Source of the DNA: Candidatus Latescibacterota bacterium
Lineage (GTDB): Bacteria; Latescibacterota; UBA2968; GCA-2709665
NCBI GenBank assembly: GCA_965237675.1
Contig: OZ250150.1
Span: 2,048,001-2,112,000 of the forward strand
Direction: 5' to 3'
DNA length: 64,000 bases
This document shows, piece after piece, positions 124-57,461 of the stretch. Within the stretch, counting starts at the first letter, position 1. Each line of letters begins with the position of its first letter. The notes under the pieces were generated by a model. It made no database searches. It had not been told where the DNA came from and saw only the letters and a list, made by a program, of their open reading frames with translations. The position numbers were made by a program, and so were the translations under genes.

Positions 124-1811
124 CCCGATTAATTCATGAATCGTCAGATAGAGCATTTTAAGGAAGCAGAAAGAGCTTCCGAGTGAGACAAGAAACGAAA
201 GCGCATGGGCTGTGACGGATTTGGCGTGTTCAAGCCGTTTGGGCGGCGCCTGCTTTGCCTCGTGACGTCAGGTTGACCTCGATGCCCGTGTCAAGCGCAC
301 AGACTTCTCCATGACCTTTGGTGGTGGTCGATGCAAATGTGAAGGCGGGGTCAGCACGTCGATGGGTTATGGAACACCCGTTGCCAGATTATAGAGGATC
401 TTGCCATAAAGGTGTTTGAGTGGAAACGCCGTTGGCAGATGGAACTTGATTTTAGTTTTCAACTCACAAACGCGCCCGGCGACTTTCAAGAGACGATTTT
501 GCAGGGTATTGAACTGTGCGTTGGTCCACTTCGTGCCGCGCAATCCGATTGCAGCCAGGCTGTGCATCAGGACATAGGCGGCGCTGTGGAGAAAGAGACG
601 GAAGTGATTGGCCTGGAAGGTGTGACAAGAGGTGCGATCGGAATGGAGAAAGGTCTTGTGATTTTTGATGAAGTTTTCCATCCTGCCGCGTGTGCAATAG
701 GCGGTTTTGTAGATGAATGACGGTTGGGCGCGCTTCAGGTTGGTGACCACGAATCGGATATTGACACCTTGCGGTGTCACTTCCGCCTTGCAGACGATGC
801 GTTGTGGACACGCCCAGGTGCCGGCCTGATAGGCCCAACAGCGATAAAGGCGCACGGTTTCTCCGGAATCGGCATACCGCGTTTTGGCCTGGTCTATCAA
901 GGACTGTGCCTTCCGCAGGAGTTTGGCGTTGCCGTTCTGTCCGAGGACAAAATACACATCTTCTTCCTCACACAACACGTGCACTTCCGGACACGAAAAA
1001 TGCGCATCGCCACGTAACAGGATCTCCACGTCGGGCCAGGCTTTACGCAGGTAGGCGATCACCCGTTTGAGGATGGTGACGATCTCTTTACCCGCAGGCC
1101 GCCTGCCAGGACGCAAGACCGTCGTGATCAACTTGCCGGTTTGGCCTTCATAGATATGCAGGGGCTGGTAGCAATAGCCATTGAAATACGCATTGAACAA
1201 CGACAACTGTTGAGACCCATGCACCTTGTCTTCGGTGTCATCGATGTCCAACAGAATGGCTTCCGGCGGTTCCTCATACGAGGCGACAAACACATCCGCA
1301 AAGGCCTTGGCGATCCGATACAAATCGGTTCTGCTGATGCGGTTCTCGAACCGACTCATCGTGGGCTGACTGGCCAGGTCCGCGCCAGACAACGGCAACC
1401 GATCACAGGCCGCCTTGAAGCCGGGGTCCTCGCGTAACGTCTTGCAATCATTCGCATCCTCATACCCACAGGCCATCTGAAAGACACGTTGTTTGATCAG
1501 GTCCATCATCGAATGATGTACGTAACTTTGATGTCGATGATCGGTGAGCGCCGCAACCATCCGATGCAAAATGCCGACATTGGCCTCGACCTCACGAAGC
1601 AGCATCACCCCGACGTCGGTCGTCAGCACGCCCCCGTCGAACGTGGCTTCTACCTGCCTACCAGAAAGACTTGCGAAAGACAACCTGTGATGTTTATCTT
1701 GAACTCCCACGGTAGTTTCCTCCTGTTTCATTGTTATTAGGTTATTTGCGTAACCATAATATAATACAATGACTTGGGTATGGAAACTACCTTTTTTGTG
1801 AATTATTCAGG
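124..1811 (-). mobile_element. IS1380-family insertion sequence, complete (1688 bp)
   Basis: Imperfect terminal IRs CCCGATTAATTCATGAA (124-140) and revcomp CCTGAATAATTCACAAA (1795-1811), 13/17 identical. TTAA duplicated at 120-123 and 1812-1815. Transposase inside. Confidence 0.93.
367..1731 (-). CDS. IS1380-family DDE transposase
   Basis: 454 aa with motifs FDGGVLTTDVG, CGYEDAND, LASQPTMSRFEN, LDIDDT, LRGDAHF, RGRMENFIK. Confidence 0.95.
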   Translation of the reverse strand: MKQEETTVGVQDKHHRLSFASLSGRQVEATFDGGVLTTDVGVMLLREVEANVGILHRMVAALTDHRHQSYVHHSMMDLIKQRVFQMACGYEDANDCKTLREDPGFKAACDRLPLSGADLASQPTMSRFENRISRTDLYRIAKAFADVFVASYEEPPEAILLDIDDTEDKVHGSQQLSLFNAYFNGYCYQPLHIYEGQTGKLITTVLRPGRRPAGKEIVTILKRVIAYLRKAWPDVEILLRGDAHFSCPEVHVLCEEEDVYFVLGQNGNAKLLRKAQSLIDQAKTRYADSGETVRLYRCWAYQAGTWACPQRIVCKAEVTPQGVNIRFVVTNLKRAQPSFIYKTAYCTRGRMENFIKNHKTFLHSDRTSCHTFQANHFRLFLHSAAYVLMHSLAAIGLRGTKWTNAQFNTLQNRLLKVAGRVCELKTKIKFHLPTAFPLKHLYGKILYNLATGVP

Positions 1812-2311
1812 TTAAGATGTGATCCATGTTTTTCATTGTCCTGTTTGCAATTTTTGTGAATTTGCGTATTTCTATTGCCGCTCCAGGAAATCTCTTTCTA
1901 CATTCCCTCATTTTCATTATTGCAGATCTTATCCTATTCTTCCAATCAACATAGTCTGTTTCTCTTTTTTCAGTAAATTCCAAATAACTCGCAATTCTAT
2001 TGAAAGAATCTTCGTCAAGAGAATCTATGTCGACTATTTCTAATGTTCCTATAAAAAAAGCATACTTGGAACGCAGGATTTCGACCATGTCATTATTTAT
2101 TTCCTGCATATCTTTGCAAAGGCGTTTGACACCGGCTCTGACATATTGAGTCTTTTCCTTTTGCACTTTATAAGAGTCACAAATTTCATCTACTGCGGTG
2201 ATATTTATAGGCAATTTGTCTTCCAAAGCCTTTGTTTCAGGAAATGTAATCACCTCTGCCATTCCGATATCCCCTTTCCGATTGGGGCTGTTGAGCGTTC
2301 GCGTCAAAATT

Positions 2312-5227: not shown

Positions 5228-6270
5228 TGAGTGTGCAGCTGGCCAGCATGAAGGATATCCGGGCCTTATTCCGCAATAAGCCGGATCTTTCCCGAGCCCG
5301 GATCGATGCGCTCCTCGAGAAACACGGCTTCAGTTCGTCCCGGACTATTCAGCGCCTGGATGGCAATTTCACAAATCTGACTCTTGATGTGGAAACTCAA
5401 GCCCACGGCCGTGTATTCCTCAAGATGCAATTCCGGCGAACCCGCGGCTTCAGTCTGGAGGCCGAGTTCATCGCCACACGGGCGTTGCAGGCGGCCGCCG
5501 ACGTTCCCGTGTCTGAGTCCCTGGTGTACGACGGCGACGGGGAACCGCTTCCGTTTGAATGTCTATTGATCCCCCATGAACCTGGTGAGCCGGGCCTTGG
5601 CTTCTACAGGGGCGCATCCCGGGCGCAGCGACTGCAGTTGGGCGCCCTGCTGGGCGAGACCCTGGCGCGCGTGCATAGCCAGCAATGTCCGGAAGCGCTT
5701 CAGGCGGAGCATACGAGGGACCTGGCACGTTGGGAGGGGACGGTCCGGGATGCGTTGTTCGGAGACGAGGCGCTGGCTTCTTCCCTTGCGGTAACCCTGC
5801 CCGAACTGTGGGGCAGGGTGCAGGCCGCCATGGAACGCGCGCCCGATGTGAGGATACGCGGCGGTAACGTCTTCCTGTGGGGAGAACCCGGACTCCACAA
5901 CGTGCTCGTGATGAACGGCGGTTCGCTGCAAATCACAAACGCGCATGATTTCCAGTCGGCCGGATGGGGAACGGCGATCCTCGACCTGCAGCAGGTCGAA
6001 GGCGAAACCCTGGCCAGGCCGGGGTCGGATTACTATGAATCCGGTTACGTCGATGCATTTCGATCTTCCTACGAGGCCGCCGTCGAAAAACCTGTCGCGC
6101 GGTTATCGCAACACGAGGAAAAGCTTCTGGCAATTGTCAAGAATATCCGCGGGATCAGGTTTTTCTGGGACTGCGGAAGTCTTCTCCACCCCAGGACACC
6201 TGAGTTCCTGGGCGCCGCGGTTACCGATCTCGAGAGTCTGCGTCTCGGGCAGGACGAGTATTCCTCCTGA
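5227..6270 (+). CDS. aminoglycoside phosphotransferase/choline kinase-like protein
   Basis: VFLK lysine, LGETLARVHS, catalytic-loop-like WGEPGLHNVLV, HDFQSA metal motif. Confidence 0.7.
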   Translation: MSVQLASMKDIRALFRNKPDLSRARIDALLEKHGFSSSRTIQRLDGNFTNLTLDVETQAHGRVFLKMQFRRTRGFSLEAEFIATRALQAAADVPVSESLVYDGDGEPLPFECLLIPHEPGEPGLGFYRGASRAQRLQLGALLGETLARVHSQQCPEALQAEHTRDLARWEGTVRDALFGDEALASSLAVTLPELWGRVQAAMERAPDVRIRGGNVFLWGEPGLHNVLVMNGGSLQITNAHDFQSAGWGTAILDLQQVEGETLARPGSDYYESGYVDAFRSSYEAAVEKPVARLSQHEEKLLAIVKNIRGIRFFWDCGSLLHPRTPEFLGAAVTDLESLRLGQDEYSS

Positions 6271-6289
6271 CACCAGTTGAGGTGTGACG

Positions 6290-6412
6290 CGGCTATTCAC
6301 CATCGCCGGCAACAAGTACCGTATGATTGCCTCCATTCATTTCAATCGGGGCAAAGTATATATCCATCATGTGCGTACGCAAAATGCCTACTTCCGCGGA
6401 GGATTGGAGGAC
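6290..6412 (+). pseudogene. 3' remnant of HigB toxin
   Basis: LFTIAGNKYRMIASIHFNRGKVYIHHVRT matches the HigB C-terminal half. No 5' half, and it reads in frame into higA. Confidence 0.75.
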
Positions 6413-6818
6413 ATGAACTTCTTTACCCCACAGCTTCAGCGATCCTGGACGCACGTGAGCGCCTTACTTGAGATTCGAAACGAGCGTGATTACGATATGG
6501 CTGTGGAGCGCCTTAACAGCCTCATTGACGAGGTAGGCACGGATGAGGAAACATCCGCTCCATTCTCTGCTTGATACGCTAGGCGCCGTTGTCCATGCTT
6601 GGGAGGAACACCATCATCCCATGCCCCGGGTCAATGGCAGAGATGTGCTTAGATTGCTCATGGAGGTACATAACTTGACGCAGGCGGAACTGCCAGAGGT
6701 GGGTTCGCAAGGGGTTGTTTCGGAGATTCTGGGTGGCCGCCGAGAGCTGAACATCCGGCAGATTCGTGCTCTGTCCGACCGTTTCTGCGTATCACCGTCG
6801 GCTTTTGTATACCATTAA
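6413..6818 (+). pseudogene. HigA antitoxin, frameshifted near 6550
   Basis: GGAGG-ATG 6413. IRNERDYDMAVERLNSLIDEVG in one frame, HPLHSLLDTLG...VGSQGVVSEILGGRRELNIRQI in the next. Confidence 0.82.
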
Positions 6819-15331: not shown

Positions 15332-16300
15332 TCAGAGATACAGCGCGACGCTGAAGACATGGATCCTTTGATCTCTCACAGACCCGCCAAAGCCCCTGTT
15401 GGCGTAATCCACGGCGATTCCACTGCCGCCTGCTGTGGTAAAATCGAATCCGAAACCCAACGCGATGGGAGTCCGGGATTTTTGTCCTGCTCGCAGCGAA
15501 ATGGCAAGTGAATACCCCGGAGCCAATGAAGTAATATGGGTATACTCCACACCCGTGTGCAGTGCGGATTGACCGTGGGGATAGAAGGGTCTGGTCAGGT
15601 CAACGGCGATGTCGAGGCGATACGGGAAGGGCTCGAAACCCATCGTCGATATCAAATCGATGAGCACCCCCGCCCGGACCTGCTTCGGAACGGCAATGCG
15701 CTCTGGCTCGCCCATTGCTCCGGTGCTCAGGTTTCGTGCGCCCAGCGCGATCATCGCATTCCGGGACTCCGTGGCGAAATACGCGCCGAGATCGAGGGCA
15801 AAAGCGTTCCAGGTCCCGTCCCCATACCCTTCGCGGATCAACTTGACAGCGGTACCCAGCGCAAATCGGTCGTTCATCTCCGCTCCCCAGGCGCCGGTAA
15901 CGGCGTAGTTTTTAACGTCCAGGGTCGTGCTGCTTCGGTTATCGTAAATGGTAGTGCGTCCGGCGTCGAAGTTCTGCAACGAAAGTCCGAACGTTCCTGC
16001 CTTCGATACCCTCCCCGCAATGCATGCTACGTGTTTTTTGGTACGACCATACCAATCCACATACGTATAAGTCGCGTCTATCCTCTCCACGAAGGCGAGC
16101 CCCGCCGGATTATACACCATGGTCGAGGCGCTTCCCACCGACGCGACGCCGGTTGCGCCAAGCGCTTCGTCACGGGCGCCGTTGGGCAACAGGAGAAAGG
16201 TGAACCCAACTCTGCGATCGGGTAGTCCCTGGGCGAATCCCTTGTCTGCCATCAGTCCGGCAGATAGCACACATAGTCCCAACGCGATGAACTGTCTCAT
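15332..16300 (-). CDS. PorV/PorQ-like (UPF0164) outer-membrane beta-barrel
   Basis: Signal peptide, FTFLLLPNGARDEALG, YNPAGLA, AFALDLG, amphipathic terminal strand. Confidence 0.85.
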   Translation of the reverse strand: MRQFIALGLCVLSAGLMADKGFAQGLPDRRVGFTFLLLPNGARDEALGATGVASVGSASTMVYNPAGLAFVERIDATYTYVDWYGRTKKHVACIAGRVSKAGTFGLSLQNFDAGRTTIYDNRSSTTLDVKNYAVTGAWGAEMNDRFALGTAVKLIREGYGDGTWNAFALDLGAYFATESRNAMIALGARNLSTGAMGEPERIAVPKQVRAGVLIDLISTMGFEPFPYRLDIAVDLTRPFYPHGQSALHTGVEYTHITSLAPGYSLAISLRAGQKSRTPIALGFGFDFTTAGGSGIAVDYANRGFGGSVRDQRIHVFSVALYL

Positions 16301-16397
16301 GATCTGCCAGCCTCCAGAATGGATTGCCGTACAAGAAACCTGGAATGCCATACGGCGTGGAAAAGAGGTTCTCCCGTTGCCACCGAGCCACTTCTGA

Positions 16398-17435
16398 TCA
16401 CATCTCGATTGAGACGCTTAGCAACTGCACGCGATCGTCCTTGATCTCCTCATTAATGATCGCCCCAATATAGGAGTCAACCGCGACGCCCAGACCCCTT
16501 CTGACGTAATCCACGGCAATCCGCCGGCCGCTCGCCGACCTGAATTCCAGCCCGCCGCCCCATCCAAAGGGATTCGGGGATGCGTACCCTCCTCGAATGG
16601 AAATACCGAGTGAATATCCGCCTGCTCGTCGCATCAAATACGTATATTCGACACCCACGCGCAGCGTGGTGTCACCTGACGTTCGGATAGGCTTGTAGAG
16701 GTCGGCGGCCAGGTCCAGGTAGTGCGGAAAGGGTTCCAGACCCAGCGTGGAGATCAGATCGATGAGTACCCCGGCGCGGATACGCTTCGGTACGACGTAT
16801 TCCTCCGGCTCGCCCAGAAAGCCACCAGTCAGGTTCCGCGCGCCCACGGCGATGATTGTATTGCGGGACTTCGACGCGTAGTACGCGCCCAGATCGAAGG
16901 CAAAGACATTTTCATTCCTGACCGTAAACGCCTCATGGATGAGCTTGAGGGTGGATCCGATCGCAAATCGATCGGCAATCCTCCAGCCGCAGGCGCCGGA
17001 AACGGCATACTGGTTTACATCTTCAGTGCGTAATCCTCGATCGTAATTCTGGACTGAAAGACCGAGCGACCATCTTTCGGCTGCATTCGCGGCAATCCCG
17101 ACGACATAGTTCCTTTCATTATATTCCAGGTCCGCGTATCCCTGCTCGGCCGAGATCCAAACGTTGTCAGCTTTCCGGTTCGTGTTCGCGAATGTTAAGC
17201 CCGCATCCAATCCCACCACGAAGGCGAGGCCCGCCGGATTGTACATAATGGCCATAGCACTCCCGATGGTACTCACGCCGGTTGCGCCTAACGCTTCGTC
17301 ACGGGCGCTGAAGGGTTGCCGCAGAAAGTGAAAACCCGTGTATTGGGCGGGCGTCTCCTGAGCGTATCCTCGTTGTGCCATTGGACAGGCGCAGAGTGCG
17401 CAGAATATAGTCAGAATAATGCGTCTCATCGTCAT
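16398..17435 (-). CDS. PorV/PorQ-like (UPF0164) outer-membrane beta-barrel, paralogue
   Basis: FHFLRQPFSARDEALG, YNPAGLA, VFAFDLG. Tandem duplicate of the adjacent gene. Confidence 0.85.
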   Translation of the reverse strand: MTMRRIILTIFCALCACPMAQRGYAQETPAQYTGFHFLRQPFSARDEALGATGVSTIGSAMAIMYNPAGLAFVVGLDAGLTFANTNRKADNVWISAEQGYADLEYNERNYVVGIAANAAERWSLGLSVQNYDRGLRTEDVNQYAVSGACGWRIADRFAIGSTLKLIHEAFTVRNENVFAFDLGAYYASKSRNTIIAVGARNLTGGFLGEPEEYVVPKRIRAGVLIDLISTLGLEPFPHYLDLAADLYKPIRTSGDTTLRVGVEYTYLMRRAGGYSLGISIRGGYASPNPFGWGGGLEFRSASGRRIAVDYVRRGLGVAVDSYIGAIINEEIKDDRVQLLSVSIEM

Positions 17436-17628: not shown

Positions 17629-18888
17629 CTACCTGCCGCCGAGTACGGTGCCGACGTTCAAAAGGAGCTCGATCTGATTTGCCTGTTCGTACTCATCCCC
17701 GAGCCATCGCACGTATTGCACCTCGTATCTGAGCACGATGCCGCTGTGGAGAACATGCCGGGTTCCCAGGCCAACCCCGGCGCCGAATCGAGAGCCAAAA
17801 TAGTCGCCGTCAATAGTCGTGGCGAAAATCCGGCCATACGGCGAACTCGAAGCCGATCCACGGGCGAGAAAACTGAATCCACCCTGTGCGACCCTCGCAG
17901 TGCTGGCGTCCCCTTCGCCAAGTGAGACATGGGAAACGGCTATTCCAAAATCGAAAGCCAGACGATCCATAAGAAATGAGGTCATATAAATCGATGGCGA
18001 CAGCCGTACCAGACCTCCCCCGGCGCTGGCGATCTTCAGGGCATCACCGGATTGGCCCTTCAGGACAGAATACGAGAGTAGATTCGCGCCAATTTCGCCC
18101 CTGGGCCTGTTCCGAGTTTCGAATCCTGCAGTAACCCTGGGTTTGGGCCAGGCTTCAACGGCGTCGCGTTTTTCAGCAACAACGATCACGTCGATCTCCT
18201 CGAACGCAATCTGCAGGCTTTTCCGTCTTGCAAGCCCGCGCCGCCTGGCGGGAGGCGCGTATTCGATTGTGACGCCAACGGAGTCCATGGCAACAATCTC
18301 TCCTGTTACCGCGCCTTCCTTCCCTTCCGTCGTGTAGACCACGTGAGCATACCAGCCCGTCGCGATTTGCGAAGGGTCGAGGTCGCCCCGGTACATTACG
18401 GTCACGTAGTCGGCAGCCTGCCGTGCCCGTCGCCATTTCTCAAGGGTCCGCCTGTCCGGTGCGACGGCGAGTGTCTCAATAACCGCATAAGCGATTTCCC
18501 GTCTTTCCCAGGGTCCGGATTTCACGACTATGCCATCCGTGTCTTTACCGACAATTTCCCCGTTGACGGTTCCCCGGACGCCTTCCGCCGCGTAGACGAC
18601 GTGCGCGAACCACCCCTTGACAATCTTCAAGGTGTCCAATTCCGCACGCGTCATTACAAGAACGCCCATCTCGCGGGACCACTGGTCGGATAGTTGCTCC
18701 CCACCGCTCTCGTCCCCCGTCTGCTCTACTTCTGTACTGTCTTCGGCGGCGATTGAGGCGAGTGTAGGCCCGGTTGGTGCGCTTCCTACGGGATCGACAC
18801 CCGCATCGCGTTGTGCCGCAAACGAATGGCCAGGCCAGAACATGATTACAAGCGTGATCGCGATCAGAACTGTAGGGTAACGTATCAT
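17629..18888 (-). CDS. secreted protein: two GWYAHVVY modules + probable small beta-barrel
   Basis: GGGAGG RBS, signal peptide, two ~85-aa repeats, C-terminal ~150 aa of alternating strands (SPYGRIF, FGAGVGLGTRH, LRYEVQYVRW). Confidence 0.8.
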   Translation of the reverse strand: MIRYPTVLIAITLVIMFWPGHSFAAQRDAGVDPVGSAPTGPTLASIAAEDSTEVEQTGDESGGEQLSDQWSREMGVLVMTRAELDTLKIVKGWFAHVVYAAEGVRGTVNGEIVGKDTDGIVVKSGPWERREIAYAVIETLAVAPDRRTLEKWRRARQAADYVTVMYRGDLDPSQIATGWYAHVVYTTEGKEGAVTGEIVAMDSVGVTIEYAPPARRRGLARRKSLQIAFEEIDVIVVAEKRDAVEAWPKPRVTAGFETRNRPRGEIGANLLSYSVLKGQSGDALKIASAGGGLVRLSPSIYMTSFLMDRLAFDFGIAVSHVSLGEGDASTARVAQGGFSFLARGSASSSPYGRIFATTIDGDYFGSRFGAGVGLGTRHVLHSGIVLRYEVQYVRWLGDEYEQANQIELLLNVGTVLGGR

Positions 18889-18996: not shown

Positions 18997-19545
18997 GTGC
19001 GCCGTGCAAAGGCGCGGATCTTCAGTGGGTGAGAGTCCCACCCGACAAGGGTTGCTTCAGTCGGTAGCAACCGGAGCAGGGACGTAGGTAACGAAATCTC
19101 TGACGCCTCCGGTGTAAAGGGTCGCAAGGCGACCCCGCGAGTATGCAGGCCGTAACGAGCAGTGAACGCTGAGCAGGCCTCGGAAAAAGCTAATGCGGGA
19201 GCCGGGAGATTGGTATGAGCCGGAGACCTCCGGAGAAGGTTCGGAAGCTACAGAGGACGTTACATGCCAAAGCGAAGGAATCGCCCGACTACCGATTCTA
19301 CGCGGTTTATGACAAAGTGTATCGGGAGGACGTCCTGCACTGGGCCTACCGCTGTTGCAAGGCCAACGGCGGCGCGGCAGGTGTGGATGGAGAGACGTTC
19401 GAGGATAACGAGTCATATGGACGAGAACGGTGGTTAGGCGAACTGTCGGAAGCCGTGAGAAGCAAATCGTATCGAGCAGCCCCGATCCGCCGGGTCTACA
19501 TCCCGAAGGGGGACGGCAGGCAGCGTCCGCTGGGCATCCCGACGA
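18997..19545 (+). mobile_element. group II intron, 5' fragment
   Basis: Starts GTGCG, has domain-I-like sequence (GTGAGAGTCCC, GGTAACGAA, GGCCGTAAC) and is followed by the RT N-terminus. No DV/DVI seen. Confidence 0.85.
19215..19545 (+). pseudogene. group II intron reverse transcriptase, truncated at RPLGIPT
   Basis: KVRKLQRTL, RFYAVYDKV, GAAGVDG, RRVYIPKGDGRQRPLGIPT, then unrelated sequence. No YADD. Confidence 0.92.
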
Positions 19546-19645
19546 CGTGCCCGTTATATTCGGTGAGCGAATCGGCCTGCACCGGCTTGCCGGACCAGGG
19601 GCAGGTCTCATTGATGCAATCGTCAATGTCAAGAGCGCGTTTCAT
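19538..19645 (-). pseudogene. 5' fragment of small YHS-like Cys protein
   Basis: AGGAG RBS. MKRALDIDDCINETCPWSGKPVQADSLTEYNGHVVG, with the expected FC..C continuation replaced by antisense intron sequence. Confidence 0.7.
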
Positions 19646-20507: not shown

Positions 20508-21598
20508 CTAGTGTCCCGTCCCAGAAATAGCTTTACAAAATCGTTCGACTTTTTGGATGATCGATTGTGCGGTGGCGGTCCAGAGGAAAGGCTTCGACGT
20601 GTCGTTGTAGTTGTCGGTGAAGGTTTGTATTCTGTCGATAAGTTCATTGACAGATCTGAAGGAGCCGCGCCTGATGGCCTTCTGAGTGATGATATTGAAC
20701 CAGATCTCGACCTGGTTGAGCCAGGATGCGTAGGTCGGTGTAAAGTGAACGTGGTATCTGGGTCTTTGTGAAAGCCATCGTTTCACTTTGGTGTGTTTGT
20801 GCGTACAATAGTTGTCGACGATCAAATGCACATCGAGATCATCAGGGACGTTTTGGTCGATGTGGTTGAGAAACTGCAAAAACTCCTGGTGGCGGTGCCT
20901 GCGCTTGCATTGCGTCAACACCTCGCCCGAGGCAATGTCCAGGGCAGCGAACAACGTCGTGGTGCCGTGGCGGCGGTAATCGTGCGTCACGCCCTCCACA
21001 TATCCCAGCCCCATCGGCAAAAGCGGCTGGGTACGCTCCAACGCCTGCGTCTGGCTTTTCTCGTCGACACAAAGCACTATCGCAGAATCCGGTGGGTCCA
21101 GATACAGACCGACGATGTCGTGGACTTTTTCTGTGAAGAAGGGATCGTTAGATAGCTTGAAGTGCTTCTGACGGTGTGGCGCAATCCCCAATGTGGACCA
21201 GATACGTTGCACCTCGGATTTGGATATCTTCGTTTCGGCAGCGATGGAACGACACGTCCAATGGGTGCTGCCGTCTTCGGGTTTTTGGTCAGCGTCTTGC
21301 GGATCAGTGCGGTGATGTCTTCGGCCTCAACCGTGCGTGGTCTGCCCGAACGGCGTTCATCATACAGACCCATTAATCCTTGCTGGAGAAAGCGGTTACG
21401 CCAGGTGATGACGCTCTGCTGGCTCAGCCCGACTTTTTGGGCAATCACCCGGTTACTGAGACCTTCGACGCTCATCAAGACGATCTTGGCACGTCGCACG
21501 AGACCATGCGACAACGTACGAGAGGTTGAAAGTGAGTTGAGTTCCTCACGGACCTGGCCAGACAACACAATGGGCTTCCGAGGACGACCGCGTCCCAT
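20508..21598 (-). CDS. IS630 transposase in two frames (-1 shift at A5, 21282-21286)
   Basis: HTH part MGRGRPRK...RSGRPR. Catalytic part [29 protein letters not shown]. Programmed shift or mutation is unresolved. Confidence 0.88.
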
Positions 21599-21690
21599 GG
21601 TTCTCTCCTTTCCCGATGGGTGTAAGAAGCGTGTAGAGAGAACATAGGACAGGCTCAATAAATAGTCAAGTTACTTTAGGGACAAAACAC
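20511..21690 (-). mobile_element. IS630-family insertion sequence
   Basis: IRs GTGTCCCGTCCCAGAAATAGCTT and revcomp GTGTTTTGTCCCTAAAGTAACTT. TA on both sides (20509-10, 21691-92). Confidence 0.92.
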
Positions 21691-52021: not shown

Positions 52022-55018
52022 GTGAACGCCACATCGACCTTCCAGGAGCTCATTCTCCGCCTCGAACGATTCTGGGCGGATAACGGGTGTATCATCTGGC
52101 AGCCGCTCAGCGAAAAGGTGGGTGCCGGTACGCTGAACCCGGGCACCGCGCTTCGCGTGCTGGGACCGGAGCCCTGGAACGTGGCCTACGTTGAACCCAG
52201 CTTCCGTCCCGACGACGGCCGATTCGGCGAAAATCCGAACCGGATGCAAATGCACACGCAGTACCAGGTTGTTCTCAAACCCGAGCCTGGCAACCCCCAG
52301 GAGCTCTACCTGGACAGCCTGGAAGCGTTAGGTCTGAATCGCAGACAACACGACATCCGTTTTGTGGAAGACAACTGGGAATCCCCCGCGCTGGGCGCGT
52401 GGGGCCTGGGGTGGGAGGTCTGGCTCGATGGCCTGGAAATCACTCAGTTCACTTACTTCCAGCAGGCTGGTGGTCTACCGCTCGACCCTGTGCCGGTAGA
52501 AATCACTTACGGCATGGAACGTATTGCCATGTACGTTCAGGATGTGCGCGAAGTCTGGCAGCTTCGCTGGAATGAGAACGTCACCTACGGCGACATTCTC
52601 AGACAGCAGGAAGTGGAGTATTGCAATTACGAGTTCTACTACGCAAACGTCCAGCGCCTGCGGGCCATGTTCGATCTTTTCCTCGAGGAAGCCAGAGCCG
52701 CCATAGACCGTGGCCTCGTAATACCCGCCCATGACTATGTGTTGCGGTGCTCTCACACCTTCAACCTGCTGGACACCCGTGGGGCGGTCGGTGTTACCGA
52801 ACGTGCGAGGTACTTCGCACAAATACGCGATCTCGCCAGGCAGGTTGCCGAAGGTTTTGCCGGACAGCGCGAAGCATCCGGTCACCCCCTGATCAAGAAA
52901 ACCGCAGACGCGGCTGCTCCGAAACCGGTACGGGATTTTGAACCTTGCGAACACGCCGACCTTCTTGTGGAAATCGGCTCCGAAGAACTCCCGTCCCACG
53001 ACGTCCGGTCCGGCATCGAACAACTCGAGGGGCGCCTCCCCCAGCTTCTTCAGGAGCAGAGGCTTGAATATGACGGCGTCGAAATAACGGGGACCCCCAG
53101 ACGGCTTGTCGCGAGCGTCAGGAACCTCGCGGGCCGGCAGCCAGACCGGATGCGCGAAGTGCGCGGCCCGGCTGTCAGGGCCGCTTACGACGACGATGGA
53201 AAACCCACTCGCGCCCTTGAAGGATTCAGTCGCGGACAGGGCATCACTCCTGGTTCCGTGGAACACCGGAAAGACGACAAGGGCGTTGAATACGTTTACG
53301 CCCGGCGCCATGAACCCGGACTCGAAACACAGGAAATTCTGACGAAACTTCTTCCCGACCTGATTGCGGGCCTGAACTTCACTAAAACGATGCGCTGGGA
53401 CTCCGACGGTTTCGTCTATCCTCGACCTCTCCGATGGATTGTCGCACTCTTCGGAGACCAGATTGTCCCGTTTCCAATCGCCCGGATCCGGAGCGGGGAT
53501 ACCAGCCGGGGATCGAGGCCCGAGGGTGCTCCGCCAGTCCAGCTGAAATCCGCCAACGACTACCACCGGCAAATGGAGGAACACGGTCTGGTCGTCAACC
53601 GGGACCGGCGGAAGGACGCCATCTGGAATCAGGTTCTCGAACAGGCGCGGGCGGTGGGCGGTACCGTAAAGGAAGATCCGGACCTGCTCGACGAAGTTAC
53701 CGATCTGGTCGAAGCGCCCTTTGCGCTGCGCGGCGGGTTCGACGAAGCCCATCTTGAACTTCCGCAGGAGGTCCTGGTCACGGTACTCAAGAAATACCAG
53801 CGCTACTTCCCTATAGTACACCCGCAAACAGGCCGGCTGCTGCCCTATTTCGTGGCCGTATCCAACGGCCGGTCGGCCGATTCCGGCACGGTTATTCGAG
53901 GAAACGAGAGTGTCGTCCGCGCCCGGTTTACAGACGCCGCCTTCTTCTACAGGGAAGATGGCCGGAAGCCCCTGGAAGGCTACCTGCCGCGGTTGGATAC
54001 ACTCACCTACCAGGACGAACTGGGCTCCGTTAGGGACAAAAGCGAGCGAATCGAGCGACTGCTCACCGTCGTCGCCCGGGATCTGGGTCTGTCGGAAGGC
54101 GATACGAACACAGCGAAGAGGGCGGCCCGGCTCTGTAAAGCCGACCTGGCCACCGGTATGGTCGTCGAGATGACGTCCCTCCAGGGTGTGATGGGCCGTT
54201 ACTACGCCTTGTTGTCCAACGAAACGGACGCGGTGGCCGTTGCCATCCAGGAACACTATTTTCCCCGGTTTCCTGGCGACACCCTCCCAGCGAGTAATTC
54301 CGGTTTTGCGGTCTCGGTAGCCGACCGGCTGGACAGCCTGGCAGGCCTATTCTGCGTCGGAATCAAACCCCGGTCCACCGCCGATCCCTACGGGCTCCGC
54401 CGGGACGCGCTGGGTCTGTTGGCCCTGCTTATCGGGAAGGGCCGTCCGTTCTCCCTTAAGAAAGGCCTGGACGCCGCGGCAACGGGGCTACCTATCCGAA
54501 TCGATCCCAGTCGATTGAAGGACGCCTATGCGTTTATCCTGCGCCGCCTGGGTGTGCAACTGAAAGAAGAAGGTTTTCGTCACGACGTGGTTGAGGCCGC
54601 CCTTGCCGGCGGATGCGATGACCCCTTTCGGCTCCGGACCATTGTGGAAGGCCTTAATCATATGGTTGGTTCGGATAACTGGATGGAAACCCTCCATGCC
54701 TACGCGCGTTGCAATCGTATCGTCCGGGATCTGAGCGAGAGCCATTCAATGAATCCTGAGGCAGATCCAACCCCTGCCTCGCGGAGCCTACATCAGATGT
54801 GGGGTGAAGCCCGCCGCAGGATGGATCATTCGGAAGACAGAATCGATACCCTGGATAACGTGCTGGCCGACCTGTGCGGCCCGATTAACAGCTTTTTCGA
54901 AGACGTCCTGGTGATGGATGAAGATCCCGTGCTCCGCCGCGCCCGGCTGGCTCTCGTTCAGCGTATTGCCTCTCTTACGGACGGCATTGCGGACCTGAGC
55001 CGGCTTGAAGGGTTTTAG
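52022..55018 (+). CDS. glyQS: glycine-tRNA ligase, fused alpha and beta subunits
   Basis: Alpha motifs [24 protein letters not shown] and beta motifs [30 protein letters not shown] in one 998-aa ORF. Confidence 0.97.
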
Positions 55019-55923: not shown

Positions 55924-56009
55924 GCCCCTGACAGCAATATCCATTTGCTTTCGTACGCTGTTACGTGTATTTTTTCCATTCAACCCCTATTCGGAAAGGA
56001 GCCGATCAG

Positions 56010-56288
56010 ATGGATACCATGCACGCGTCCATCGAATTCCGTCCCCGCGGGCGAACGCTTGCCATGGGCGGGATCCCCTGGCTGCCGAGGATTACGGACA
56101 AAGCGCGGGCTATGCTGCGGAACAACATCGGCGACTATATCTACCCGTGACCCGCCGACCAGAAGTTCCTGGAGGAACTCGGCATGCCGGCAGAAGAATT
56201 CACGCAAATTGTGTCCGAATGCAACCTGGACGCTGAAGTCATCGAGCGTGTCCGACCCTATTACGAAAAGTCCCGAAAGGGAGAATGA
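56010..56288 (+). CDS. DUF5069-like small protein with in-frame TGA (codon 47), candidate selenoprotein (92 aa)
   Basis: AAGGAG-ATG 56010. GGIPWLPRITDKARA...GDYIYP*PADQKFLEELG...EEF reads as one domain across TGA 56148-50, with 45 more sense codons. Confidence 0.75.
56154..56183 (+). promoter_or_regulatory. candidate bacterial SECIS hairpin
   Basis: GCCG/CGGC lower stem, AGTTCC/GGAACT upper stem, TGGA loop beginning after 19 nt downstream of the TGA. Confidence 0.6.
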
Positions 56289-56525
56289 AAATACAGAAGC
56301 CGCCACGCGTTGCGTGGCGGCTTTGCTCGTTTATCACCTCAGGTTGTTTTCATCTCCCACCATACGATTCACGTCCCATCAAATTCGGCCTCCCGCCAGC
56401 CTCCCTTCAGGTCCAGTCAAACAGAACCAGGGATTCGATCTCCTCTGTATCAGACGACAAACATCGCATTTCATCCGCGCGGTCCTTCATCTGGCCGCTC
56501 GCAAAGATCCACCTGCCGTCTGGTC

Positions 56526-57461
56526 CTACCGTTCCCCGCCCTCCGGCAGGGCTTGGCGGGCCAGCGCCCGGACCTCGCCGGACCCCATCCGAAGCAACCC
56601 GTCGATCCCTATCACGTCGGCCGCAAAGAGCTGCGGACATTCCTGGGCAGCCAGATCGTATGCTTCCTGCACATTGTAATTCACACCCCTGTAGCGGTAG
56701 AGGTGGCCCAGGCTCTCCAATTGTCCGTTTCGTCTCAATGAATTCGTTACACCCATCTTGAAATAATACAACTGCCGGTCTCTCTTGTCCCCCCACGTCA
56801 ATGTATCCGGCTCGGGAACATGCGCCATCGACCTGTCCAGTTCTGCCTGAAAGGCTTCGATCTGGCCATCGACCATCTCCAGCAGCCCTCGAAGGACCTC
56901 ACTGCGGGCGGCTTCGGATTCGTCTTGAAGCATATCCTGGAGCGCCAGAGCGGCCTTGCCGTAAAATGCGTAACGATCTCGTCTTCCCTCTCCGAACAGG
57001 TCCATTTCAATGGCTTCGGCTCTCCGGGCCAGTGCCTCCAGATCCAGGTGGTCATCACCCACACCCGCGTAGTCGTCATCCGCGCGTGCGACCTGTAGTC
57101 CCACCAGCAACGCCCGCTCGACAAGATGCATCATGTCATCCGCAGGATCATAAACCCTCAAATTCCGTGACTTTCCTGCATCGGTTCGTTTCACATCCAC
57201 GCCGTGCGCAAACCCCCGTCTGACCAGTTCCTGCTCCGCCTCTATACCCAACCTTGACAATAGTTCGTGTAGTACCCCGCCCAGTATCGGGTGGCTTCCG
57301 GCCGGCAGGTATTCCTCCCGGTCTTCGATCACCATATCCGCCACCTCCGCCGCCAACGCTTCGTCTCCCTCGGAATTTCCGTTGCTTTTGAAACCCCTTC
57401 CACGCCTCAGACCGAAAGCAACCACGAGGACCAAAAGGACAACCAGAACGGTAGTAACCAT
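56526..57461 (-). CDS. hypothetical protein with N-terminal membrane anchor
   Basis: 311 aa, acidic and helical. GGAG RBS, hydrophobic MVTTVLVVLLVLVVAFG. Confidence 0.75.
   Translation of the reverse strand: MVTTVLVVLLVLVVAFGLRRGRGFKSNGNSEGDEALAAEVADMVIEDREEYLPAGSHPILGGVLHELLSRLGIEAEQELVRRGFAHGVDVKRTDAGKSRNLRVYDPADDMMHLVERALLVGLQVARADDDYAGVGDDHLDLEALARRAEAIEMDLFGEGRRDRYAFYGKAALALQDMLQDESEAARSEVLRGLLEMVDGQIEAFQAELDRSMAHVPEPDTLTWGDKRDRQLYYFKMGVTNSLRRNGQLESLGHLYRYRGVNYNVQEAYDLAAQECPQLFAADVIGIDGLLRMGSGEVRALARQALPEGGER

Follow-up and report, generated by a model that had tools for sequence, protein, structure and literature searches.

The reading frame and its TGA codon

Does the TGA codon that interrupts a short reading frame in the genome of a Candidatus Latescibacterota bacterium end a small peptide, or is it read as selenocysteine (Sec, U)? 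The question is raised by positions 56010-56288 of a 64,000-nucleotide stretch of DNA (GenBank assembly GCA_965237675.1, contig OZ250150.1, positions 2,048,001 to 2,112,000 of the forward strand), which we refer to as the window and whose coordinates are used for the features below. An initial annotation, made from the sequence alone, had proposed that this region hides a selenoprotein of the DUF5069-like family, and that the TGA is followed by a hairpin resembling a selenocysteine insertion sequence (SECIS). Our analysis indicates that 56010-56288 (+) is very probably a single gene for a 92-residue DUF5069 selenoprotein, in which UGA would be read as Sec by means of the downstream hairpin. 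The gene and its flanking signals comprise the following features.

55993-56001, + strand: ribosome-binding site GGAAAGGAG, with the core AAGGAG at 55996-56001, 8 nucleotides (nt) upstream of the ATG at 56010 (read directly from the sequence)
56010-56288, + strand: complete predicted selenoprotein gene of 92 codons (46 + Sec + 45) plus the terminal TGA at 56286-56288 (translation with TGA as U; full-length Cys homologues of about 90 aa are 52-76% identical)
56148-56150, + strand: in-frame TGA, the predicted Sec codon (U47), at the conserved Cys column of DUF5069 (comparison of loci)
56296-56324, no strand assigned: hairpin resembling an intrinsic terminator, with a 13-bp stem containing 9 G-C pairs and a T-run on both strands (terminator scan)

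The strong ribosome-binding site and the ATG at 56010 were as initially annotated, with an AAGGAG core and a spacer of 8 nt. The TGA at 56148-56150 is the sole interruption of the frame 56010-56288 (context NNIGDYIYP*PADQKFLEEL, with the asterisk standing for the TGA), and it is followed by 45 sense codons up to the second TGA at 56286-56288. These 45 codons had been suspected to encode the remainder of the same domain, and this is borne out by the match of the 92-residue read-through protein, in which C was substituted for U when it was run in programs, to Pfam DUF5069 (PF16798; 51.4 bits, gathering cut-off 27, E 1.6e-13). The match is a single stretch from residue 12 to residue 85 that crosses the TGA position. 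Because only positions 4-77 of the 133 positions of the PF16798 profile are covered, the read-through protein represents a short form of DUF5069. The only solved member of the family, 3OMD from Leptospirillum rubarum, is matched by profile at E 3e-17, and the Cys of its YTYNCPLD motif is aligned to U47. The open reading frame (ORF) list does cut the gene short, as had been remarked: the mechanical calls divide it into 55965-56150 (61 aa) and 56184-56288 (34 aa).

The terminator scan of the window yielded 3 sites versus 0.6 expected. The one at 56296-56324 lies 8 nt past the terminal TGA, and it closes both the predicted selenoprotein gene and the convergent gene at 56526-57461.

Coding sequence beyond the TGA codon

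A scan of a genome collection gave 163 pattern matches, 127 of which were confirmed. The best 80, one per genome record and all from species-representative genomes, were kept as loci L001-L080. The codon at the column of interest was located by a strict motif in 57 loci and by a relaxed motif in 79, and L035 was assigned by eye. TGA was present in 59 of these loci, and together with the window this gives 60 TGA genes. In all 60 the frame remains open for 39-47 codons beyond the TGA, and the final stops are TAA in 26, TAG in 24 and TGA in 10 of them. Mean column entropies at the first, second and third codon positions were 0.93/0.69/1.53 for codons +11 to +38, and 0.58/0.37/1.39 upstream of the TGA. 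Since variation downstream is concentrated at third positions, as it is upstream, the downstream codons appear to be coding and under purifying selection. Furthermore, TGA terminates 20 of the 47 long ORFs in the window, which indicates that this codon is not generally reassigned.

According to one alternative explanation, the TGA is a true stop, such that a 46-residue peptide would be made (or one of 61 aa from the GTG at 55965), and the remaining sequence would be untranslated or would form a 34-aa gene starting from the ATG at 56184. Such stumps are produced by standard ORF calling and are found in public records of relatives, and an ATG is present at 56184. We nevertheless regard this explanation as very improbable, since the Pfam domain and the 3OMD fold continue across the TGA and the downstream codons are open, with variation dominated by third positions, in every one of the 60 genes. 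In addition, the terminator is placed after the second TGA (56286-56288), with none such after the first. There is also no conserved restart at 56184, because the Met at this position is replaced by Leu, Ile or Val in relatives (e.g. GLPAEEF, GISAEEF).

TGA alternates with Cys codons at a conserved column

The initial annotation had placed the TGA at a family-wide Cys and had called for a tabulation of Cys versus TGA at this column. Among the best 80 of the 127 loci, the codon is TGA in 59, TGC in 15 and TGT in 6. The TGA is thus not unique to one assembly, as it occurs in 59 separate genome records of the 80, at protein identities of 43-91%. The residue next to U is P, G, A or S, and in the 21 Cys loci C is invariably followed by P. 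In 85 diverse DUF5069 representatives, chosen from 150 listed matches with the exclusion of stumps, fragments and long multi-domain proteins, the column holds C in 77, S in 4, G in 2, P in 1 and W in 1. The TGC or TGT codons of 21 loci, the Cys of these 77 representatives and the aligned Cys of 3OMD together confirm the assignment of the TGA to the conserved Cys of the family.

It is conceivable that the window holds a pseudogene, or that a mistake in sequencing or assembly turned TGC or TGT into TGA, a difference of one base. This is hardly credible, as TGA recurs in 59 of 80 independently assembled records at 43-91% identity, together with a co-conserved hairpin (described below) that the Cys genes lack.

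Protein collections reflect the same interruption. A word-indexed search of 5.8 billion proteins returned 43 relatives of 50-161 aa. Full-length relatives (about 90 aa, 41-76% identical) read YIYPCPAD, as judged from every second row, and four close relatives stop exactly at Y[IV]YP (P0033, 96%; P0036, 91%; P0040, 85%; P0043, 78%). Of the 372 relatives that an exhaustive search of 1.84 billion cluster representatives gave at E<=0.001, 150 were listed. Nine of those listed terminate at query residue 46 with their own last residue, and among the matches listed there is one 34-aa protein that aligns to residues 59-90 only.

The best full-length public relative, P0046 (91 aa, 62% identical), reads IYPWGADKKF and thus carries Trp at the Sec column. 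This Trp is best explained by an automatic gene caller having translated a TGA under a code in which UGA specifies Trp, and some selenoproteins would therefore hide in protein sets as Trp variants.

As a separate observation, in several large proteins of 640-1,400 aa (P0052, P0069, P0057, P0062 and others) stretches that match the N-terminal part of the query recur 5-10 times. P0052 (1,300 aa) has 9 such stretches and P0069 (1,140 aa) has 10, in the form of repeat arrays of PRxR...LPRxxDKARA.

A conserved hairpin follows the TGA codon

The region immediately downstream of the TGA contains the following structural features.

56164-56179, + strand: upper hairpin of 6 bp, AGTTCC (56164-56169), loop TGGA (56170-56173) and GGAACT (56174-56179), conserved in TGA genes
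56154-56191, + strand: extended local stem-loop, with lower pairing of GCCG (56154-56157) with CGGC (56180-56183), from the minimum free energy (MFE) fold

The loop begins 19 nt past the TGA and its second base is G. Of the hairpin as initially described, the upper part AGTTCC-TGGA-GGAACT, with its spacing of 19 nt and its loop G, was upheld in the relatives. The lower GCCG/CGGC stem is present in the window but is lineage-specific and no family-wide feature, as its columns (7-10/33-36) are paired in just 64.8% of cells across relatives, which counts among the points weighed below.

For comparison with the bacterial SECIS (bSECIS), we used the consensus set out in the legend to Fig. 2 of a review from May 2026 (PMC13188914), according to which the loop should measure 3-9 nt and the upper stem 4-16 bp, with a G in the first two loop positions, a spacing of 16-37 nt and an MFE of <= -7.5 kcal/mol. 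As far as this legend defines the model, the hairpin lies within it, with the 4-nt loop UGGA, a stem of 6 bp, a spacing of 19 nt and a loop G. The MFE of 56148-56200 (53 nt from the TGA) is -13 kcal/mol, which is under the limit of -7.5 kcal/mol.

The conservation of the hairpin was assessed in 59 TGA genes (58 loci and the window, with L035 excluded), the alignment of which has 54 distinct rows. The best hairpin obeying the rules has equal geometry in 58 of the 59 genes (spacing 19, loop 4 nt), with a stem of 6 bp in 30, 7 bp in 26 and 5 bp in 2 of these. The 6-bp core helix is paired in 99.1% of cells. A version with 7 pairs is paired in 92.3% of cells versus 83.8% upon shuffling, where none of 500 replicates attained 92.3%, and versus 12-60% with slid partners. 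Covariation among TGA orthologues, the test that had been suggested for this hairpin, was found at pair 18-31, which is G-C in 42 rows, C-G in 12 and unpaired in none. Pair 17-32 is A-U in 36 rows, G-U in 13 and G-C in 3. The covariation score was 0.226 versus 0.100 for shuffled alignments, and none of the 500 shuffles reached it.

The hairpin overlaps coding sequence, and its two variants encode K-F-L-E-E-L and R-F-L-E-E-V/A. In the TGA genes, codons +6 to +9 are TTC in 58, CTG in 59, GAG in 58 and GAA in 57 of 59, compared to 12, 12, 6 and 5, respectively, of the 21 Cys genes. Third-position entropy at these codons is 0-0.12 in the TGA genes versus 1.13-1.55 in the Cys genes. The Ala codon at +2 is free in the TGA genes (GCT 25, GCC 21, GCA 7, GCG 5). 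Because synonymous sites within the hairpin are frozen in TGA genes but free in Cys genes, a constraint on this segment at the level of the RNA is evident. Furthermore, the window contains a single copy of the 12-mer TTCCTGGAGGAA versus 0.01 expected; this 12-mer is found once each, at a constant offset, in 56 of the 59 TGA loci and in 1 of the 21 Cys loci (L020). Equal geometry in nearly all TGA genes, the compensatory exchange of G-C for C-G and a synonymous freeze confined to TGA genes substantiate the SECIS-like character ascribed to this hairpin.

Distribution of the Sec and Cys forms

A maximum-likelihood tree was built from 80 rows (79 loci and the window, with L035 excluded) and 72 columns, in which many forks are unresolved. 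The window falls inside a well-supported clade of 13 that is entirely composed of Sec forms, together with L001-L012. Parsimony requires 6 changes between Sec and Cys versus 17.7 for shuffled labels. Every major clade contains Sec forms, and the labels of the records include Latescibacterota, Gemmatimonadota, Poribacteria and Planctomycetota.

In L019 and L020, TGC (at position 6139 in each) encodes a Cys form that is nested inside an otherwise all-Sec clade, and most of the hairpin is kept. These two loci apparently represent recent Sec-to-Cys conversions with a decaying SECIS.

Weighing the evidence for Sec insertion

Several observations weigh against Sec insertion. Beside the incompletely conserved lower stem, the 53-nt fold is no more stable than its shuffles (z = -0.5, with 63 of 200 shuffles equalling it), and the perfect upper stem alone reaches -5.8 kcal/mol, which is weaker than the -7.5 kcal/mol of the model, such that only the longer fold attains this limit. 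No Rfam family matched the hairpin. Because the fold energy does not exceed that of shuffles, the case for the hairpin rests on its conservation, and stability has been set aside. With regard to conservation, the sequences are kin, and the switch from G-C to C-G possibly represents one or two events. Likewise, the well-supported branches of the tree by themselves force only 2 changes between Sec and Cys.

Components of the Sec machinery were also not encountered in the sequences at hand, which represent small samples of the respective genomes. An NCBIfam scan of 50 ORFs of the window, a small part of the genome, found no selA, selB or selD. ARAGORN found no tRNA gene in the 64-kb window and no tRNA-Sec in L001-L060, and a tblastn search with SelA, SelB and SelD of E. 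coli against the window and 871,243 bases of locus flanks gave no match. For whole genomes, the lack of Sec machinery in the window and flanks is uninformative. Lastly, no second selenoprotein gene was detected by Pfam among 21 TGA-read-through candidates in the unassigned stretches of the window; the only Pfam match among these was a HigB fragment, located upstream of its TGA.

In a tblastn search for Sec/Cys pairs with 2,530 ORFs from the flanks, the known site was recovered in 59 sequences. The remaining hits were off-frame or antisense artefacts of conserved genes and were rejected as noise.

These observations bear on a further explanation, namely that an ordinary residue (Trp, Gly or Cys) is inserted at the UGA through a suppressor tRNA, a local read-through signal or a variant code. 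That the Sec machinery was unseen in the window and locus flanks would fit this explanation, as would the W at the column in P0046, since at least one gene caller used a code with UGA as Trp. On the other hand, TGA stops 20 of the 47 long ORFs of the window, this gene itself and 10 of the 60 TGA-form genes, which excludes a general reassignment. Moreover, the column swaps solely with Cys codons in the 80 loci, which is a signature of Sec, and the hairpin satisfies the bacterial SECIS rules on loop, stem, spacing and loop G. Decoding as an ordinary amino acid is therefore improbable.

Sec insertion, in our view, would proceed as follows. The hairpin AGUUCC-UGGA-GGAACU, 19 nt 3' of the UGA, would be bound by SelB, the elongation factor specific for Sec, carrying Sec-tRNA(Sec), by analogy with the canonical bacterial pathway. 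Because of this binding, the UGA at 56148-56150 would be decoded as selenocysteine, with no termination there, and the ribosome would translate 45 further codons before it reaches the real stop at 56286-56288, just ahead of the terminator. The Sec residue would take the place of the lone Cys that is conserved throughout the family.

Relation to known selenoproteins

According to the initial annotation, this family is not known as a described selenoprotein, and we found no description of it as such. DUF5069/PF16798 is absent from the 119 prokaryotic selenoprotein families and subfamilies whose domain accessions are compiled in Table 1 of the review from May 2026 (PMC13188914). NCBIfam, including its selenoprotein models, gave 0 families at E<=1 for the read-through protein. 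A literature search, with supplementary tables outside its coverage, found no paper naming DUF5069 or PF16798, and no DUF is named in the main text of the BSepDB paper (111 families). Likewise, the literature search found no paper that links selenoproteins to Latescibacterota, Poribacteria or Gemmatimonadota, and for 3OMD it returned only papers on 3-O-methyldopa. On the evidence presented here, DUF5069 is a new candidate selenoprotein family that would use the known bacterial mechanism; the supplementary tables of these papers could hold it.

As far as the listed bacterial selenoproteins are described in the parts of PMC13188914 considered here, DUF5069 resembles them in having a UGA at a conserved Cys column, TGA orthologues in many genomes and a 3' stem-loop within the model. 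Most of the families in Table 1 of this review have UxxC/CxxU or a thioredoxin-like fold, whereas the window protein has neither. A likeness also exists to the GOS_A hypothetical protein from the Global Ocean Sampling marine metagenomes, described in the text of PMC2398784 as a selenoprotein without assigned domain that is represented by 2 Sec sequences and 155 Cys homologues. A 2022 review gives no domain, motif or accession for GOS_A, and Table 1 of PMC13188914 omits it. The two families, which could be compared by text description only, share the status of selenoprotein family without a function. It is unlikely that GOS_A is DUF5069, because a match to DUF5069 would normally have been reported as a domain. 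Finally, the deep-Sep families (PMC12013277), which include a DUF523 protein and the hypothetical proteins DG, DW and DF, were, according to the text of that paper, likewise characterised by TGA/Cys pairs, TGA homologues and a bSECIS-like structure. These are different families. In DUF5069, Sec forms outnumber Cys forms (59 of 80 loci), and the Sec form has been recorded from many more genomes than was the case for several deep-Sep families, as described there. The sequence of its hairpin core is almost invariant.

If the proposed reading is correct, one family would be added to the prokaryotic selenoproteome. It would also offer a first clue to what DUF5069 does, a family for which a structure has been solved and a function has hitherto not been described, as an exchange of Sec for Cys flags a residue as chemically active, most often redox-active. 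Moreover, it would reveal a systematic annotation error, with public sets carrying stumps of 45-90 aa that end in YP, C-terminal fragments, or Trp at the site.

Structure and predicted role of the Sec residue

An AlphaFold 2 model of the protein, based on an alignment of 44 rows, had a predicted local distance difference test (pLDDT) score of 88.5 and a predicted template modelling (TM) score of 0.79. It consists of a short two-strand hairpin (residues 18-23) followed by four helices. With Foldseek, the sole match of this model at E<=0.001 was 3omd_A, with a TM-score of 0.77 on the query and a root-mean-square deviation of 1.6 Å over 78 columns. The window protein differs from 3OMD in corresponding to about half of the 145-residue chain (TM-score of 0.50 on the target) and in having Sec instead of Cys. 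A protein-atlas look-up with the natural Cys homologue P0034 gave no usable match.

In the model, U47 would lie directly ahead of the helix formed by residues 48-57. The N-cap position of a helix is favourable for a thiolate or selenolate. Across 86 rows, K31 and D50 are invariant, and P12, L25, R27, D30, R33 and C47 are shared by at least 90% of the rows. The motif around the Sec residue is YPU[PGAS]AD, and Cys stays below 30% in every other column. Because no second Cys column is conserved, the protein is not a UxxC/CxxU protein of the thioredoxin type. For the same reasons, U47 would most likely be, as judged from the model, a solitary selenolate, either redox-active or nucleophilic, that works with an external partner.

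Gene neighbourhood

In the window's clade, a fused glycine-tRNA ligase gene and rsmD are both located upstream of the selenoprotein gene. In the wider clade of the window, rsmD lies upstream in 38 of 58 Sec loci and in 2 of 21 Cys loci. The ligase gene of the window, at 52022-55018 (+), encodes a fused alpha-beta protein of 998 aa that scores 1170.8 bits versus the NF011499 cut-off of 1244. An ABC transporter was considered as functional partner on the basis of a loose BLAST link and was rejected, since strict clustering puts the permease only in the wider clade of the window and on the opposite strand. For these reasons, the link to the permease is attributed to synteny by descent.

In distant clades, a protein of 336-350 aa is encoded upstream in 24 loci (10 Sec, 14 Cys) and a protein of about 297 aa is encoded downstream in 14 loci (4 Sec, 10 Cys). 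In L057, the DUF5069 gene overlaps its neighbours by 4 nt (start/stop) on both sides. The downstream protein has an FNR-type NAD-binding domain (PF00175), with similarity, at scores below the cut-offs, to PaaE, Hmp and NqrF in their reductase parts. The upstream protein (846-1856 (+) in L057, and its homologues) matched no Pfam or NCBIfam family. It is confidently predicted (pLDDT 92.9) to adopt a fold of the aminoglycoside/choline/homoserine kinase type (3csv, E 1.3e-7; 311 matches at E<=0.001), and residues K52, E71, D205, N210 and D231 are invariant, such that the catalytic Lys, Glu, Asp and Asn are kept.

The presence in one operon of a kinase-fold protein, a protein with a lone Sec or Cys and a flavoprotein reductase hints at a small molecule as the substrate of a redox step linked to NAD(P)H, and we would put forward such a step as a hypothesis drawn from gene order. 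Rather improbable is the combined proposal that DUF5069 is an unrecognised selenoprotein family, differing in fold and motif (YP-U-[PGA]-AD, with one Sec at a helix N-cap) from families of the thioredoxin type, that would form, with the products of the kinase-fold and FNR-type genes that overlap it in many genomes, a hitherto undescribed NAD(P)H-driven selenol/thiol module acting on a phosphorylated small molecule. It should be noted as a point against this functional part, with its redox role and flavoprotein partner, that it is based on residue position and gene order alone. A complex prediction for the Cys form of DUF5069 with the FNR-like neighbour and flavin adenine dinucleotide (FAD), which was run without controls, gave a score of 0.00.

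Other features of the window

Rfam yielded a single match above threshold across the window, a full-length group II intron element, D1-D4-4 (RF02003), at 19023-19160 (+), with 99.7 bits versus a gathering threshold of 49. The ORFs around it, 17629-18888 (-) and 19057-19632 (-), gave no NCBIfam match.

A transposase of the IS630 family is split over the overlapping ORFs 20508-21212 (-) and 21077-21658 (-), with profile positions 101-299 in one ORF and 1-75 in the other. Its gene either has suffered a frameshift or relies on programmed frameshifting for expression. An intact IS1380 transposase is encoded at 367-1731 (-).

The first 36 residues encoded by 6284-6649 (+) match the C-terminal half of a toxin of the HigB/RelE type (positions 39-71 of 74, E 1.6e-8), and this ORF is a putative truncated or mis-started toxin-antitoxin gene. 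Lastly, 15332-16351 (-) and 16398-17435 (-) are tandem genes for outer-membrane proteins of the PorV/PorQ family (type IX secretion), of which one scores above and one below the subfamily cut-off.
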